Assembly (NCBI GenBank): GCA_051418015.1
Contig: JBPRGF010000033.1
Coordinates: 52,298-116,297, forward strand
DNA length: 64,000 bases
Reading direction: 5' to 3'
Origin: Candidatus Nitrospinota bacterium M3_3B_026
GTDB taxonomy: Bacteria > Nitrospinota_A > UBA7883 > JBPRGF01
The notes under the pieces: generated by a model
Seen by the model: only the letters and a program-made list of their open reading frames with translations
The model's database searches: none
What the model was told of the DNA's origin: nothing
Shown: one piece after another, positions 3,278-42,648 of the stretch
Layout: the number at the start of each line of letters is the position of its first letter
Position numbering within the stretch: the stretch's first letter is position 1
Position numbers and translations under genes: made by a program

Positions 3278-3761
3278 GAAGGCCTTTTTTTCTTTCCCCG
3301 AATCCGGTTTTATTTGAAAATCTCCAGCAGCCTGTTTTTATAGCGGATCGCCATGGGAAGGCGACACGTCATTCCGGTGGCGGAGCGCTGCCAGCCGCCC
3401 ATTCCTTCCGGCGCCGAGGTATCGGCTTAAAAGCAAGATTCACGTTTGTCCCCAAGCCCTGTAACATTAGATACTATATAAATTTAACTTTTGTCAAAAA
3501 TTTCACTTGATTGAAAGTCCTGTAACAACAAAGATAACACGCGCCGGACGCCCGCGCCAAACAACACGCCGGTTCGCTACGCGAGACCTGGCGCTTGCGC
3601 CAAAGAGGAGTCCGCAGGCGAAAAGAGGTTTTTCTTTCCTGGTTTTACTGCCCATCACTCACCCTCCGTCGCCTGCGCGTAGCTTGAGGACAAGTGAGGA
3701 CAAGAATCCCGTTTACAGAAACCTTTATCTTGTGTAGTGTAAACTCTTGTGTATTAAAGCC

Positions 3762-37074: not shown

Positions 37075-37119
37075 TGACGAATGTCCCGCTTTTCTATTTT
37101 CGCGCCGCTTGATTTGAAA

Positions 37120-38196
37120 ATGACGAACAGGGGAATTTTCAGGGCGTCCACGGCCTGGGCCGTTCTCGCCGTTTTCCTGGCCCTCGGCGGCTGCGCCGCG
37201 CCGAAATATTCCATGACGCTTGACGTCTACGGAATCAACGGCGATGTGGAGAAGGTCTGGCCGCCCGCGCCGGAGGTGCCCCGCTACATGTACATAGGGG
37301 AGCTTGTGGGTGAGCCTAACTTCGCGAAAGATTCGGGAGGCGGCGGATTCAGGAAGGCGCTGGAGGTCATCGCGGGAGTGATCGCGGGCAAGAGCGGGCC
37401 GGAGCTTTTGCAACGCCCCCAGGCCGGCGTGGTGGACGCTGAGGGAAACATTTACATCACCGACGTCAGCCGCCAGGCGGTCTGCGTGTTCCACCAGGAG
37501 AAGGGCTTTTTGGTCTGGGATATGATCAGCAGGATGGGCAGATTCGTATCCCCCATAGGCGTCGCCATCGGCAGGGACGGCGAGATTCTAGTGACGGACT
37601 CCGAGCTCGGCGTCGTCGTCCGGCTCGACAGGGAGGGCAAGCCGCTGGGGATATTCGGGCGCAAGGAGTTGACCCGTCCCACGGGGATAGTGGCCGATCC
37701 CGAGAAGGGCTTTGTTTACGTCGCCGACACACACGCCCACGACATCAAGGTTTTCGATTATGATGGCGGACTCGTGGGGACCATCGGAAAACGCGGCGAC
37801 GAGAAGGGGAGCCTCAACTTTCCCATTCATCTCGCCTTCTCCAAGGGGAGGATATACGTCACTGACACCCTCAACGCGCGCGTGCAGGTGTTCAGCGAGG
37901 ACGGGGAGTTCATAACGACTTTCGGCAGCCGGGGTCTTTACAAGGGGCAGTTCACCCGCCCGAAGGGCATAGCCCTGGACTCCGACGGCAACATCTACGT
38001 TGTGGAGTCATACTACGACCACCTGCTGATATATGACAACCAGGGCCGGTTCCTCCTGCCGATGGGAGGGGCCGGGTCCGATCCGGGCAAGTTCTACCTG
38101 CCGGCGGGGGTCTGGGTGGACGAGCATGACAGGGTATTCGTGGCGGACATGTTCAACCGGCGTGTCGTTGTTTTCCAGTACCTTGGCGGCTCCTGA
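37120..38196 (+). CDS. NHL-repeat six-bladed beta-propeller lipoprotein
   Basis: Lipobox LGGC; VWPPAPEVPRY; RPTGI, FPIHLA, RPKGIALD, LPAGVWVD. Confidence 0.88.
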   Translation: MTNRGIFRASTAWAVLAVFLALGGCAAPKYSMTLDVYGINGDVEKVWPPAPEVPRYMYIGELVGEPNFAKDSGGGGFRKALEVIAGVIAGKSGPELLQRPQAGVVDAEGNIYITDVSRQAVCVFHQEKGFLVWDMISRMGRFVSPIGVAIGRDGEILVTDSELGVVVRLDREGKPLGIFGRKELTRPTGIVADPEKGFVYVADTHAHDIKVFDYDGGLVGTIGKRGDEKGSLNFPIHLAFSKGRIYVTDTLNARVQVFSEDGEFITTFGSRGLYKGQFTRPKGIALDSDGNIYVVESYYDHLLIYDNQGRFLLPMGGAGSDPGKFYLPAGVWVDEHDRVFVADMFNRRVVVFQYLGGS

Positions 38197-38384
38197 CCCG
38201 CCACTCCCGGCCCGCTCCACGAGGGGCTTCCCGGCATTCGCCAAAGCGGTGATAGATGATGACGGCGAGCCCTCTGGCATGGTAAAATTTTATTGTTGAA
38301 AACGGCGGATTCCAGCGTCTTGCGCGCCGCCCGCCGTTCCGCGGTTCGATCGCCGCTTGTCATCGTTTCAGGGGATTATTGGGG

Positions 38385-40913
38385 ATGACTGACACCTGCC
38401 GCCGGGGGGGAGGCCTGCCGTGGATTGTGGCGTTCGCGCTCGCCGTTTTTTCCGCGTGGGGCGCGGAAGGCGCCAGGGTGGCCGACGTATCCAACACCAA
38501 GCATAACCTTTCCACCTCCGGGCCGGGGACGGTGAAAGCCACCGAGGAGACGCAGATATGCGTCTTCTGCCACACGCCTCACGGCGCGGAGCTCGACGAC
38601 CCCGACAACCCCACCCCCACGCCGCTTTGGAACAGGGAGTACTCGGCGGCGACTTATACGCCCTATACCTCCAAGTCGATGCAGGCCGCGGGCATGGCGC
38701 CGCCGGACCCCGGGCTGCAGCCGGACGGCTCCTCGAAGCTGTGTCTGTCCTGCCACGACGGCACGATAGCCATCGGCGCCGTCAATGTCCTGAACGGGCA
38801 GCTCATGACATCGCCCATAGGCATGGAAGGCGTGGGCACGAGCGTTCCCGGCGAGATGCCGGGCGGGACTTACGGCGAGACGTCGGGGTTCACGAGATTC
38901 ATCGGGACGGACCTGACCAACGACCACCCGATATCCTTCACCTACGACACCGCCCTGGCCACAGCCGACGGCGAGCTGCGCGATCCGGCGGACACGAACA
39001 ACGAGATAGACAACAGGACGCTCGGGGTGAAGCCTCTCGTGCCGCTGGAGAGCAACAAGGTCCAGTGCATAAGCTGCCACGACCCGCACATCCGCGAGAC
39101 CGACGACACCGCGGGCAACATCAACAACAACACGGTCAGCGCAAAGTTCCTGCGGCTCAACAGGTTCCAGGCGTCAAACCCCATCGGGGGGAACTTCGAC
39201 ACCGCCAACGACCTTGTCTGCCTGGCCTGTCATGATAAATTGGGGCAGGAGTGGGCCCGCTCCGTCCACGCAAATGACACCCACGCCAACGAGATATACA
39301 AGGACACCGAGGCCAACCTGCGGGAGTTTCCCACGGGGATCGAGGTGTGGCAGGCCGCGTGTATGAACTGCCACGACACCCACACCGTCCAGGGCGCCCG
39401 CAGGCTCCTGCGGGAGGGGACGGACGACACCAACACCCCCAAGCAGGGGGGGAACTCCGCCATAGAGCAGACCTGCTACCAGTGCCACACCACGTCGGCC
39501 TCGTCCATACTGCAGAGCGTAAGCAACGACGTCCCGGACATATACTCCGACTTCCAGCTGACAAGAAGGATGCCGATAACGGAGACCCCGGAGGCGCACG
39601 ACATAAACGACGCCGACTTCACCGAGGACCAGGCCACCCTGGGGTATAACAACCTGTCGAACCGCCATGCGGAGTGCACCGACTGCCACAACCCCCACAG
39701 GATAATCAAGAAAAGGCTCTTCACCGACACCAGCGCCCCCACCGCGGGCGACATCGCCACCCACGCAAGCGACGACACCGACCATGACACTCTCAACCAC
39801 ACGAACATAGCCTCCGGCGTCCTGCGGGGGACGTTCGGCGTCGAGCCGGTTTACAACGACAACGACTTCAACACCGACGTGAACGCGAACATAAGCTTCC
39901 AGGAAAAGCAGGGGGTCGGGAGCACGTCGAACGTCGGCGACGCCTGGGTGACCCGCGAGTACCAGATATGCCTGAAATGCCATTCCCACTACGGCTACAA
40001 CGATGACAACCAGCCCGACGGCAGCACCATCAGGCCAGCCCTTGGTTACGCGGGCGGGACGCCGTCGGGAACGAACGGGATGCAAAACTACACCAACCAG
40101 GCCAGGGAGTTCAACTCGCCCATATCGCACAAGGGTGAGGTGAGCCAGGGAAATGACGGTGGAGCGGAGCTGAACACCAACAACCACCGCTCCTGGCACC
40201 CGGTGATGAGAGAGACCGGCCGCACGGCGAGCGTCCGAGGCAGCATGAATCCGGCGTTGTTCCTCTCGCCCTGGAACAACAACATCGGGGGGCAGACGAT
40301 GTACTGCACGGACTGCCACGGCTCCAACACGGCGCTGGGGACGGTGGCGCCGAGCGCCGGGCGCGTTTGGGGGCCTCATGGCTCCGAGAACAACTTCCTG
40401 CTGAAGGGGGTGTGGGACACCTCCGTGGGTTCATCGGAGAACGGAGGCAGCGGGCAGGATGCGCTCTGCTTCCGTTGCCACGACTATAACAACTACGCCA
40501 ACCCGAATAATGGCTCTCCCGGCAAGAGCGGCTTCTCCACCCCCAACGGCAATTGCATGATGTGCAATTTAGGTTATGACAATAACCTCCACATCGGCCA
40601 CGCGCGGAGGATCGGCTATTTCCGGTGCAAGTGGTGCCACGTGATGGTACCCCACGGCTGGAAGAACAAGGCGCTGCTCGTCAACCGCAAAGACCTGGGG
40701 CCGGAGGTGGGACTCGGCGTCGGTACCAACGCGGGCAACCTGAACGGCGGCGATTCGTCCGTCACAACGATGTCTCCGTATTACTACGACTCGAAACTGT
40801 ATATCGACAGCTGGGCCGCGAGCGGTAACTGGGACGACGACAACTGCGGCGGCGGCGACCGGGGCATGGGCGGCGAATGGATGCCGAACAACTGCGCCTC
40901 CCCGCCGCCCTGA
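38385..40913 (+). CDS. Exported undecaheme c-type cytochrome (UetA/UetJ-like)
   Basis: Signal peptide; 11 CxxCH (CVFCH, CLSCH, CISCH, CLACH, CMNCH, CYQCH, CTDCH, CLKCH, CTDCH, CFRCH, CKWCH) plus CMMCN; Asn/Asp/Thr-rich. Confidence 0.92.
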   Translation: MTDTCRRGGGLPWIVAFALAVFSAWGAEGARVADVSNTKHNLSTSGPGTVKATEETQICVFCHTPHGAELDDPDNPTPTPLWNREYSAATYTPYTSKSMQAAGMAPPDPGLQPDGSSKLCLSCHDGTIAIGAVNVLNGQLMTSPIGMEGVGTSVPGEMPGGTYGETSGFTRFIGTDLTNDHPISFTYDTALATADGELRDPADTNNEIDNRTLGVKPLVPLESNKVQCISCHDPHIRETDDTAGNINNNTVSAKFLRLNRFQASNPIGGNFDTANDLVCLACHDKLGQEWARSVHANDTHANEIYKDTEANLREFPTGIEVWQAACMNCHDTHTVQGARRLLREGTDDTNTPKQGGNSAIEQTCYQCHTTSASSILQSVSNDVPDIYSDFQLTRRMPITETPEAHDINDADFTEDQATLGYNNLSNRHAECTDCHNPHRIIKKRLFTDTSAPTAGDIATHASDDTDHDTLNHTNIASGVLRGTFGVEPVYNDNDFNTDVNANISFQEKQGVGSTSNVGDAWVTREYQICLKCHSHYGYNDDNQPDGSTIRPALGYAGGTPSGTNGMQNYTNQAREFNSPISHKGEVSQGNDGGAELNTNNHRSWHPVMRETGRTASVRGSMNPALFLSPWNNNIGGQTMYCTDCHGSNTALGTVAPSAGRVWGPHGSENNFLLKGVWDTSVGSSENGGSGQDALCFRCHDYNNYANPNNGSPGKSGFSTPNGNCMMCNLGYDNNLHIGHARRIGYFRCKWCHVMVPHGWKNKALLVNRKDLGPEVGLGVGTNAGNLNGGDSSVTTMSPYYYDSKLYIDSWAASGNWDDDNCGGGDRGMGGEWMPNNCASPPP

Positions 40914-40975
40914 TGGGGCGTTGCGAGTCTCGGATTGCGGGTTAAAGATGCTGGAGACCGGAGGCCTATCATTTT

Positions 40976-41019
40976 CTCCCCCTGCCGGAGGGACAGTGGC
41001 GCGAAGCGCCGAGGGGGAG
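40976..41019. repeat. CTCCCCCT...AGGGGGAG palindromic repeat unit
   Basis: CTCCCCCTGCCGGAGGGACAGTGGCGCGAAGCGCCGAGGGGGAG, with nested hairpin GGCGC-GAA-GCGCC. Confidence 0.6.
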
Positions 41020-41023
41020 GGAG

Positions 41024-41109
41024 CAATGTCATTCTGAGCCGCAGGCGAAGAATCCCGCCGGGCTTGGCGAGGGCGACGGGATGCTTCGCTGTTGCTCAGC
41101 ATGACATTG
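41024..41109. repeat. 86-nt palindromic REP-like element (left copy)
   Basis: CAATGTCATTCTGAGC...GCGAAGAATCCC...GGGATGCTTCGC...GCTCAGCATGACATTG folds as one long hairpin. Confidence 0.85.
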
Positions 41110-41119
41110 GCGGGGCGTG

Positions 41120-41419
41120 ATGGCAAGAACGAGAAGGTATTATGTCTACATCATGACCAACAAACGCAATACCGTTCTTTATACGGGTGTGACCTGAAAC
41201 ATCCAGAGAAGGATGCGGGAGCACAAAGAAAAAATCATAAGCGGTTTTACTTCCAAGTATAACGCAATCAAGCTTGTTTATTACGAGGTTTTCAACAGTG
41301 TCCGCGAGGCGTTGTCCAGGGAGAAGCAGATAAAAGGATGGCTGCGCGAGAAAAAGATCGTGTTAATAGAGTCGGTGAACCCTGAATGGAAGGACTTGAG
41401 CGAGGATATTATTTGGTGA
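41120..41419 (+). pseudogene. Small GIY-YIG nuclease with in-frame TGA at codon 26
   Basis: MARTRRYYVYIMTNKRNTVLYTGVT*NIQRRMREHK...GFTSKYN..KLVYYE...REKQIKGW...NPEWKDL; TGA at 41195-41197; markedly lower GC than neighbours. Confidence 0.85.
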
Positions 41420-41428
41420 CGCCGACTT

Positions 41429-41618
41429 TGTCATTCTGGGGCCGGAGGCCGAAGAATCCCGACCGGGCATGGCAAAGGCGGACGGGATGCTTCGCTTCGC
41501 TCAGCATGACATCGGGGGTCCGGGGGTATGCTTCGCGGAGTTTATCCTGAGCCACCGCGAAGGGCCCGGCATGACATCGGATGCTTGGACGAGACTCTTA
41601 GCTTCGCTCATGATGACA
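41429..41618. repeat. Right copy of the REP-like element plus two degenerate half copies
   Basis: 41429-41511 TGTCATTCTGGGG...CGAAGAATCCC...GGGATGCTTCGCTTCGCTCAGCATGACA; further ATGCTTCGC...CATGACA (about 41528-41576) and GCTTCGCTCATGATGACA (to 41618). Confidence 0.8.
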
Positions 41619-41649
41619 ACATATCGCGCATGAAACTTCCCGCCGTACA

Positions 41650-42648
41650 ATGACGATCATCGAAGCGCTGGCTTCGCTGAGGTTTTCCCTCGTTCTCATA
41701 GCGCTGCTCTCGGCGGGCGCCATGCTGGCCTCGTATGACGTCTACCACGCGGGCTGGCTGGTGGGGCCGCCGATGGCGCTGCTGGCCGTGAACCTCGCCG
41801 CCGCGATCGCCGCGAACCCCGTCTTCCGCCGCCAGACGCCGCTGCTCATCTTCCATCTGGCGCTTTTGTTCGTGGTGGTCTTCGCCGCCCTCGGCAGGCT
41901 CTGCTACCTGAAAGGCCACGTGGAGGTGGCCGAGGGGACGCCGATGAACCCCGCCCTTGCGGGATATGAAAACGGCCCCTTGCACTTTTATAAACTGGAT
42001 GAAGTAAAGTTCGTAAACGCCGGATTTAAAATAGAATACGGGCCGGATCGCGAGAAGGGCAAGACGCTCAACAGGGTGGTCTACCAAGGGCCGGGGGGCG
42101 AGCGCCGGGAAGCGCTGATCGGCGACCAGGTTCCGCTGGAGATCGGCGGGTACAAGTTCTACACAACGTCGAACAAGGGTTTCGCGCCGGTCTTCACGTG
42201 GGCGCCCGCCGACGGCTCGCCCCCCGCGACGGGGTCGGTCCACCTGCCGAGCTATCCGAGATATGAGAAACGCCAGGCGATACCCTGGGAGATACCGGGG
42301 GCGGGGTTGAAGGTTTTCACGATGCTTGTCGTGGACGAGCCTGTCATCGCCTCCGGGAAGGTTTCGAGGTTCCGTCCACCTGAAAAGCATCACGTCATCG
42401 CGCGCGTGGGGGATGAGACGAAACGGATGAAGCCCGGCGACAGGCTGGAGCTTCCCGGGGGGACTTTGGTCTACCGCGAGCTTCGGACGTGGATGGGGTA
42501 TGGTATATACAGCGACTGGACGCTGCCGTGGCTTTTCGCCGCGTGCGCCGTGGCGGCGGTGAGCCTCGGGTGGTATTTCTGGGACAAGTTCGCGGCCTCG
42601 CCGTGGATGAGGGAGGAGGGCGCCCGTCTGTCCGGCGGCGCCTCGTGA
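41650..42648 (+). CDS. ccsB: Cytochrome c biogenesis protein CcsB/ResB-like
   Basis: LASLRF N-terminus, 3 TM with FHLALL His, periplasmic domain, C-terminal TM; adjacent to ccsA. Confidence 0.75.
   Translation: MTIIEALASLRFSLVLIALLSAGAMLASYDVYHAGWLVGPPMALLAVNLAAAIAANPVFRRQTPLLIFHLALLFVVVFAALGRLCYLKGHVEVAEGTPMNPALAGYENGPLHFYKLDEVKFVNAGFKIEYGPDREKGKTLNRVVYQGPGGERREALIGDQVPLEIGGYKFYTTSNKGFAPVFTWAPADGSPPATGSVHLPSYPRYEKRQAIPWEIPGAGLKVFTMLVVDEPVIASGKVSRFRPPEKHHVIARVGDETKRMKPGDRLELPGGTLVYRELRTWMGYGIYSDWTLPWLFAACAVAAVSLGWYFWDKFAASPWMREEGARLSGGAS

Follow-up and report, generated by a model that had tools for sequence, protein, structure and literature searches.

A probable Ssn-family nuclease gene with an in-frame stop codon, set between hairpin doublets in Candidatus Nitrospinota bacterium M3_3B_026

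A 64,000-nt stretch of contig C33 (JBPRGF010000033.1, positions 52298-116297) of Candidatus Nitrospinota bacterium M3_3B_026, called the window below, contains a small GIY-YIG nuclease gene that is bracketed by palindromes within the 736-bp spacer between a multihaem c-type cytochrome gene and ccsB. Taken together, the evidence makes it very probable that this gene belongs to the Ssn family, that the palindromes are doublets of its cognate hairpins, that it is the recently inactivated sole copy in the genome, and that the whole block was inserted at the cytochrome-ccsB junction. The assembly comprises 2.85 Mb in 33 contigs (97% complete; contig GC content 58-64%).

An earlier note on this DNA had described a unit resembling a REPtron, the pairing of repetitive extragenic palindromic (REP) sequences with a REP-associated tyrosine transposase (RAYT), but without the RAYT and with no known mechanistic description, and had considered that the hairpins might be used as structured RNA. 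The unit is real and has no RAYT. The RNA use was not supported, and the main novelty claim falls to a paper of 2025: Chenal et al. (Nat Commun 16:2388, PMC11893778) describe the Ssn family, the hairpin-flanked layout and the biochemical mechanism, namely the binding and cleavage of the hairpin as single-stranded DNA (ssDNA). The observation is thus real, but its kind, an Ssn nuclease with hairpins, is already known, and no new principle comes from the window. What it adds is a hairpin variant that the published motif misses, a hairpin class that tracks the nuclease tree, two filled-versus-empty operon junctions and a freshly broken sole copy.

According to the same source, the Ssn family is nearly synonymous with CDD cd10448, and its biochemistry is established for Neisseria and Wolbachia enzymes. 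SsnA of Neisseria meningitidis, a single-domain GIY-YIG enzyme of 94 aa, binds its target, the 28-nt NTS hairpin with dRS3 inside it, only as ssDNA and cuts a few nucleotides upstream; double-stranded DNA and RNA are not acted on. Cleavage depends most on the three nucleotides that precede the palindrome and binding most on the C that directly follows it, and loop extensions are tolerated. The NTS-ssnA-NTS layout was likened to insertion sequences and RAYT/REP systems. At least one copy of a degenerate motif (SRM) was reported near 71% of the homologs and on both sides of 42%, homology being defined by tblastn at E < 1e-10, and the function demonstrated in Neisseria is the restriction of transforming ssDNA (PMC11893778).

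By homology with SsnA, the window enzyme would bind its hairpin only in single-stranded DNA and would cut it a few nucleotides to the 5' side of the tag. Cleavage would be governed by the GTC that directly precedes the stem and binding by the C that directly follows it. The flanking palindromes would then be doublets of the cognate target hairpins, a TGTC-tagged, tandem-GA relative of Neisseria NTS/dRS3 and of the 'CGTC REP' superfamily. The sole gene copy, which carries a nonsense codon, is most likely inactivated, and about 70 doublet loci persist as REP-like repeats. The sequences themselves show the homology, the link of gene to hairpins, the conserved determinants, the insertion and the stop codon. 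We infer by analogy that this subfamily would cut the tandem-GA hairpin variant, and the effect that the cut would have in the cell is drawn in the same way.

The nuclease gene and the hairpins beside it

The window gene, called a 99-codon low-GC GIY-YIG gene in the earlier note, was found to be just that. Its 99 codons and a Pfam match (PF01541, E 6.2e-20) covering residues 7-79 correspond to a single-domain enzyme, its GC content is 43.7% compared with 61.9% for the window, and its third codon positions have a GC fraction of 0.61 compared with 0.83-0.87 in the adjoining genes. The protein and an N. gonorrhoeae ssnA ortholog matched by tblastn at E 2e-19, which lies within the homology threshold of Chenal et al., and the pairwise alignment was gapless over 90 aa with 47% identity (E 2e-29). 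The gonococcal open reading frame (ORF) contains the peptides encoded by the published Y17A and E64A primers and lies amid seven SRM matches within 1.67 kb, six of them exact NTS. Y10, Y21 and E68 of the window protein align with the residues mutated in SsnA (Y6A, Y17A and E64A). The homolog of Azospirillum lipoferum 4B, one of the 29 seed genomes of Chenal et al. (PMC11893778), is 49% identical to the window protein, and its gene has hairpins of the published motif on both sides. Higher identity (63-66%) was found to the GIY-YIG proteins of Thermodesulfovibrio yellowstonii and a second Thermodesulfovibrio species. In Supplementary Data 4 of Chenal et al., T. aggregans and T. thiophilus have a cd10448 homolog, with the SRM near chance (1.1- and 2.6-fold).

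An AF2 (AlphaFold2) model of the window protein (predicted local distance difference test, 87.5) gave top fold matches to GIY-YIG domains (UPF0213, Slx1 and the UvrC N-terminal domain). The nearest solved structures, by sequence (E 2.9e-5) and by fold, were UPF0213/YhbQ-type proteins (PDB 1zg2 and 1ywl). A PDB sequence search with the protein returned only these distant UPF0213 proteins and no Ssn entry, and an NCBIfam scan gave no match above the cut-off. Judged by homology, size, catalytic residues, predicted fold and hairpin flanks, the window protein is a member of the Ssn family.

The record that supplied the gonococcal ortholog (L135; NZ_CP119142.1, 1,881,019-1,882,688) is listed as a plasmid in PLSDB, although it is an N. 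gonorrhoeae chromosome of 2.17 Mb. The ssnA ortholog that it carries seems to be without the Met-Gln-Pro-Ala with which the protein begins in the N. meningitidis primers, and may be damaged at the start.

Among 8,000 candidates scored, at least 7,996 were relatives of the window protein at E <= 1e-5, the best being 76% identical. In a scan restricted to a single genome for each species, 595 of 600 candidates were confirmed, and the best 80 loci (53-71% identical to the query; 21 phyla named in the records) were searched for GTCAT with an exact 5-bp stem whose complement follows 6-50 nt on. Within 200 bp of the gene, these tagged hairpins occurred at 6.8 per kb upstream and 7.9 per kb downstream, a density 30-80-fold greater than the 0.09-0.2 per kb found 0.5-2 kb to either side. 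Within 300 bp, 58 loci had hairpins to either side of the gene and 5 had none at all; in total, 64 had one upstream and 69 had one downstream. Complete doublets at both flanks, the arrangement seen in the window, were found in 9 of the 80. For the 64 loci with an upstream hairpin, the nearest one lay on the + strand in 46, and for the 69 with a downstream hairpin, the nearest one lay on the - strand in 50, indicating that the tags point outward. Additionally, the GC content of the nuclease gene was below that of its context in 79 of the 80 loci (median difference, -11 points).

A second sample was drawn from 201 alphaproteobacterial genomes, 74 of which had a match (a tally that includes one unpublished genome, G045, otherwise unused). 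The 40 loci examined were hand-chosen as the best match in each of 40 genomes (44-58% identity). Hairpins were present on at least one side in 36 and on both sides in 26, and the published SRM on at least one side in 18 and on both in 12. At one of these loci (L101), CGTCATTCCCGCGAACGCGGGAATCCAG, in agreement with the NTS consensus, is present to either side of the gene. Nuclease gene and hairpins are paired more often than chance would allow. The link proposed in the earlier note, which was to fail if homologous nucleases were not enriched for such flanks, is therefore real across both sets of loci.

In the window, the palindromes that the earlier note had placed about 10 bp from each end of the gene lie 6-10 bp away, the right one beginning about 8 bp past the stop codon (Table 1). 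They share the same orientation, as it had stated, with 76.6% identity to each other, and the two trailing half copies that it had seen on the right are indeed present. Each palindrome consists of two short hairpins joined head to head as a doublet, their tags outward. The left one has 21-nt arms that are 86% complementary and folds as ssDNA at -28.8 kcal/mol (z -5.8; none of 200 shuffles as good); the right one folds at -20.4 kcal/mol (z -2.3; 1 of 200 shuffles as good). In all four monomers adjoining the gene, the stem is preceded by GTC and followed by C. Elsewhere in the genome, the best match of the left doublet is 86.8% identical (C23:119641), and the third right-hand monomer is 94% identical over 50 nt to C9:66908-66957. 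No stable fold was predicted for 41587-41618.

Table 1. Features of the hairpin-flanked nuclease gene and its neighbours, in window coordinates
Feature	Position	Strand	Description
Ssn-family GIY-YIG nuclease gene (putative)	41120..41419	+	99 codons; ATG at 41120, terminator TGA at 41417-41419
In-frame TGA, codon 26 of the GIY-YIG gene	41195..41197	+	Asn, Ser or Gly at this place in 19 aligned homologs
Left hairpin doublet	41024..41113	+	Monomers 41027-41056 (+) and 41078-41106 (-), 21-nt spacer; TGTC tags outward
Right hairpin doublet	41426..41518	+	Monomers 41429-41460 (+) and 41484-41511 (-)
Third right-hand monomer	41526..41577	-	Nested insert in the loop; stem partly decayed
Fourth monomer, degenerate	41587..41618	-	TGTC tag kept, stem unpaired; 81% identical to 41480-41511
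Upstream neighbour, multihaem c-type cytochrome gene	38379..40913	+	844 aa, 11 CXXCH motifs; outside the unit, left edge of the insertion site
Downstream neighbour, ResB-like ccsB	41650..42648	+	Outside the unit, right edge of the insertion site

A CcsA-like gene is also found in the neighbourhood, besides the cytochrome and ResB-like genes. Directly upstream of the left doublet, at 40976-41019, there is a different palindrome, whose CTCCCCC...GGGGGAG arms enclose an inner hairpin rich in GC. Three matches of lesser length (20-43 nt) occur in the same genome (C3, C23 and C24) and several in the relatives G206, G212 and G216, and the palindrome folds no better than shuffled sequence (z -1.2).

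The tandem-GA hairpin and the nuclease tree

A genome-wide count of the repeat, suggested in the earlier note, was carried out. An nhmmer search seeded with the two flanking copies gave 96 matches, which correspond to 69 non-overlapping doublet loci. The strict pattern GTCATNCTGAG-N4-30-GAAGNATC matched 75 times in the genome but not once in any of five first-order Markov genomes, and the reversed-pattern control gave no match either. The monomer consists, in order, of TGTC, AT-N-CT, GA, a 2-4-bp inner stem with a 3-4-nt loop, GA, AG-N'-AT, and CCC or CTC. The third stem pair (N/N'), whose pairing the pattern used for the count does not demand, was complementary in 69 of 73 pattern matches compared with 24.4 expected under independence. 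When the core was searched without its tag, GTC stood immediately 5' in 69 of 73 cases and C immediately 3' in 72 of 73, the full tag being TGTC in 64 and CGTC in 4.

The tags pointed outward in 20 and inward in 4 of the 27 close monomer pairs in the genome. The best pairwise identity per doublet copy had a median of 75.5% and a maximum of 87.9%, indicating that the doublets are old, with no sign of recent spread. In this GC-rich genome, a generic tagged-hairpin detector gave 387 hits compared with 124-157 in simulated sequence, and because of this high background the stricter patterns were used instead. Moreover, at least one other gene here, a cytochrome gene on C9, is also bracketed by doublets. 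Flanking within one genome is therefore weak evidence, and it is the cross-genome test that carries weight.

On C9 (G000 C9:63500-68500; L081), five doublets are clustered within 2.2 kb, and in this cluster lie a second NHL-repeat gene and, after it, a multihaem cytochrome gene, an arrangement like that at window positions 37081-40913. A recurring insert of about 22-25 nt, itself REP-like (CCCTTCGGCT.CGCTCAGGG...AAACTCC-like), was seen in hairpin loops at window positions 41526-41577 and, in the same genome (G000), at C9:66907-67009, C29:103970-104079, C27:24515-24619, C3:133507-133612 and C33:194063-194176. The composite recurs at loci L034, L044 and L045 and in the relatives G225 and G228. 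Because it is found in other phyla too, it resembles a repeat nested within a repeat.

As judged from its loci, this Ssn branch uses a variant hairpin that retains the GTC tag, the AT at the stem start and the trailing C, and in which AT-N-CT or ATTGC followed by tandem GA replaces the G+C-rich stem. Within 500 bp of the gene, the published SRM was found on either side at 1 of the 80 homolog loci and on both sides at none. A large branch of the family, with 21 phyla, would thus use a tandem-GA hairpin that the published search motif misses, and genome surveys based on that motif would undercount the association. Four 11-nt strings of the variant were absent from 10 supplement files of Chenal et al., whose four PDF supplements lay outside this search and might show variants. 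Among the papers listed by full-text literature searches, none was found to name the tandem-GA hairpin variant.

The hairpins at the 80 loci were of the ATNCT class in 54 and of the ATTGC class in 22, and the two were never mixed at one locus. On a nuclease tree of 81 proteins and 94 columns, few branches of which are well supported, this class changed 2 times over 70 labelled rows, whereas shuffled labels required at least 13 changes (mean, 16.8); host phylum changed 40 times over 67 rows. With the alphaproteobacterial loci added and three classes distinguished, there were 16 changes compared with 43-57 in shuffles. On these sequences, hairpin class goes with the nuclease tree rather than with host phylum. 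The match fits co-evolution and the transfer of gene and hairpins as one block alike. Since ATNCT and ATTGC are never mixed at a locus, they would provide ready-made natural specificity variants. For those who work on Ssn nucleases and REP elements, the variant hairpins, the tracking of class with tree and the specificity variants could be of use, and the tracking, together with the presence or absence of the block at operon junctions (here and at sufB-sufC in Azospirillum), bears on whether Ssn mobilises the repeats. At locus L075 (Omnitrophota; 3505-3589), ATNCT tandem-GA hairpins adjoin ssn and canonical NTS-like hairpins lie about 230-280 bp downstream, indicating that the ATNCT and NTS-like classes can share one neighbourhood.

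Insertion, loss of the gene and competing readings

The earlier note had placed the unit as an insertion between the undecahaem cytochrome gene and ccsB and had proposed a search for an empty site. Four relatives from the same order or class retain the cytochrome and ccsB genes in this succession. In all four, the spacer is about 35-130 bp and holds neither a GIY-YIG gene nor a tagged hairpin, which agrees with that placement. The proteins of their flanking genes are 44-60% identical, and at this distance the insertion edges are unreadable. The whole hairpin-ssn-hairpin block of about 700 bp is, from this comparison of sequences, an insertion into a conserved cytochrome-ccsB junction. Contigs of sequencing runs X2, X3 and X5 gave repeat pieces only, apart from one piece of ccsB that is 96% identical and begins to match at 41619. 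They contain one weak joint, from 40865 to 41796, with a shorter side of 20 letters, and no empty-site conclusion was drawn from it.

A comparable case was found on plasmid AZO_p3 of A. lipoferum 4B (L136, 255.4-256.0 kb), where sufB and sufC are separated by a doublet-ssn-doublet block of about 530 bp. Among the Azospirillum records listed, 11 others match only the two flanks of this block. In the three that were aligned (L137-L139), the flanks are 95-97% identical and a 90-130-bp spacer takes the place of the block. A. lipoferum 4B and L137-L139 therefore form a usable filled-versus-empty pair for how the unit moves. No target-site duplication or clean insertion edge was seen at either the window locus or the Azospirillum one.

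The sole ssn copy of the genome is most likely a recently inactivated pseudogene. A tblastn search of the assembly found no second Ssn-type gene, and PF01541 was present in the window copy and as a domain of a 610-aa ORF that is probably uvrC. All 28 invariant columns of a 20-sequence alignment are intact in the window gene. As the single stop falls at a variable codon and the invariant columns are intact, the damage would be one recent nonsense change. A Logan contig of run X1 shows no difference over 40800-41494 and has the same TGA at a word depth of about 40. X1 is probably the source sample, so the TGA in this contig is not independent support. No RNA dataset was present among the sequencing runs listed as carrying the locus sequence.

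In a set of 31 genomes (G000 and 30 relatives), 10 had a strong homolog (E <= 1e-20). At least five copies of the tandem-GA pattern were present in 7 of these 10 and in 5 of the 21 others (G206 and G216 among these five), the related genomes not being independent samples. The ssn genes of nine relatives were examined: those of G213, G226, G229 and G231 are flanked by ATTGC hairpins, that of G225 by NTS-like and that of G208 by other SRM-like hairpins, and no flanking hairpins were found at those of G220, G224 and G228.

A number of observations weigh against the preferred explanation. The published SRM pattern has no match in window positions 40000-42600 and shows no excess in the genome (34 matches compared with 25-35 in simulated genomes), so that a survey would score this genome as 'homolog present, motif not enriched'. 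By nearest-neighbour energy, the single monomer folds no better than shuffled sequence (z about -0.5), and the pairing within it therefore rests on the N/N' covariation. The Neisseria comparison was made with the gonococcal ortholog, not the assayed meningococcal protein, and that ORF seems to be without a usual start codon. G206 (100% complete, 4 contigs) has 138 tandem-GA copies and no intact close Ssn homolog, and G216 has 508 copies and Ssn only as a 44-aa N-terminal fragment. Five further relatives (G208, G213, G224, G225 and G228) hold 26-90 ATNCT-type repeats, and their examined ssn genes have hairpins of another class, or none, at their sides. Repeat and cognate gene thus do not always share a genome. 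Repeats without a resident cognate gene fit loss after spread or cross-specificity, and do not alone support ongoing mobilisation. Finally, the stop codon is known from contigs of the probable source run, and because contigs hide rare variants, a rare intact allele is possible.

One alternative extends the preferred explanation rather than excluding it. It holds that the block is an autonomous mobile element whose nuclease mobilises its own gene and the gene-less doublets, as RAYT does with REPINs or TnpA with IS200/IS605 elements, so that the window would hold a dead master copy. We regard it as possible but doubtful. It would fit the lack of the block at the cytochrome-ccsB junction of all four relatives that keep the order, the presence of the sufB-sufC block in A. 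lipoferum 4B only among the Azospirillum records listed, the outward tags, both at the 80 loci and in the genome pairs (20 to 4), the low GC content of the gene in 79 of 80 loci, and a hairpin class that tracks the nuclease tree across 21 phyla. In addition, the ssn genes of relatives are found at other, non-syntenic places. However, no strand-transfer or ligation activity is known for a GIY-YIG nuclease by itself, neither locus has a target-site duplication or a clean edge, the doublets are old, genomes that lack the cognate gene can be rich in the repeats, and no homolog was found in 50,697 phage records. The Neisseria function described by Chenal et al. (2025; PMC11893778) is restriction of transforming ssDNA. 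Neither that work nor the present data bore out the earlier suggestion that the enzyme propagates the hairpins. On the same tentative footing, the self-mobilising block could be a GIY-YIG counterpart of the REPtron, with the gene-less doublets as the analogue of REPINs and with clades that travel with their own hairpin class. If true, this would account for the so-far orphan CGTC/TGTC REPs and offer many natural enzyme-site pairs for ssDNA, and the window would show a master copy newly inactivated amid about 70 doublets that survive it.

It is improbable that the gene is still functional, with the TGA read through, recoded, or a minority or erroneous base call. The intact invariant columns would fit, as would a stop that lies at a variable N/S/G position and damages one codon, and the evidence for the TGA comes from contigs, not raw reads. 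Recoding was rejected since TGA terminates both the GIY-YIG gene and the cytochrome gene and is thus a stop codon in this organism. Moreover, the X1 contig has the same TGA at its word depth of about 40, and in-frame stops recur in homologs of other genomes, which also speaks for inactivation.

Still less probable, in our view, is that the hairpins are mainly RNA elements (terminators, mRNA stabilisers or a regulatory RNA for the nuclease) and not DNA targets. The doublets are stable hairpins, and REPs, which in general are found downstream of genes, can have roles at the RNA level (Di Nocera et al. 2013, PMC3733652). The account of SsnA, which needs ssDNA and does not interact with RNA (PMC11893778), runs against this reading and also against the use as structured RNA proposed in the earlier note. 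Conservation extends beyond the stem to the GTC tag, which gives the orientation, and to the trailing C; this fits recognition by a protein better than termination. An Rfam scan of 40500-42200 (E <= 1) matched no family to the hairpins, its sole match being a chance microRNA inside ccsB.

That the gene merely landed in a repeat-rich intergenic spot, as the doublets around other genes such as the C9 cytochrome gene might suggest, is hardly credible and already refuted by the local enrichment and two-sided flanking at the 80 loci of 21 phyla and the like flanking at the 40 alphaproteobacterial loci.

Comparison with known systems

In the REPtron/REPIN system, the RAYT gene, which encodes an HUH tyrosine transposase, lies between REPs with a GTAG tag. 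The window unit resembles it in that one enzyme gene is bracketed by genome-dispersed palindromes, the doublets fold into long hairpins, and a single gene stands beside tens of repeats. Unlike in the REPtron, the enzyme is of the GIY-YIG type, not HUH, and the tag is TGTC, not GTAG. The absence of a RAYT, as the earlier note had it, extends to the genome: no Y1_Tnp (PF01797) match was found in the 97%-complete assembly, whereas the same search was positive in 6 of 14 control genomes. In IS200/IS605 elements, both end hairpins are on one strand, and TnpA cleaves and rejoins. Action on ssDNA hairpins and a gene between structured ends are features that these elements, to which Chenal et al. (PMC11893778) compare the Ssn system, share with it, whereas the window hairpins are inverted and for Ssn only cleavage is known. 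UPF0213/YhbQ proteins, of which no hairpin partner has to our knowledge been reported, are only about 27% identical to the window protein and form a different subfamily.

The CGTC/TGTC-tagged REPs described by Di Nocera et al. (2013, PMC3733652), which include Neisseria dRS3 and Rickettsia RPE and are mostly head-to-head dimers, are closer. Like them, the window repeats have an unpaired tag at one end (TGTC in 64 and CGTC in 4 of 73), a stem that starts with A-T, a predominance of head-to-head dimers (20 of 27 in this genome) and no transposase nearby. The described REPs may carry CCTC as a third form of the tag. Their stem is 8-9 bp with a 4-5-nt loop and a tail of about CCA, compared with a stem of 5 bp + GA/GA + 2-4 bp, a 3-4-nt loop and a CCC or CTC tail here. 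That work found no dedicated transposase or other enzyme for these REPs, unlike the situation here and in Chenal et al. (2025), where a GIY-YIG partner is evident.

The closest counterpart is the Ssn/NTS-SRM system as presented by Chenal et al. (PMC11893778). The window unit differs from it in the stem (AT-N-CT, tandem GA and a variable inner stem, compared with published ATTCCCGCG-type stems) and in its broken gene. In both, a single-domain GIY-YIG protein of about 95 aa (47-49% identity between the window protein and members) is encoded between oriented, genome-dispersed hairpins that have GTC before the stem and C after it, and in both the repeats can outlive the gene.

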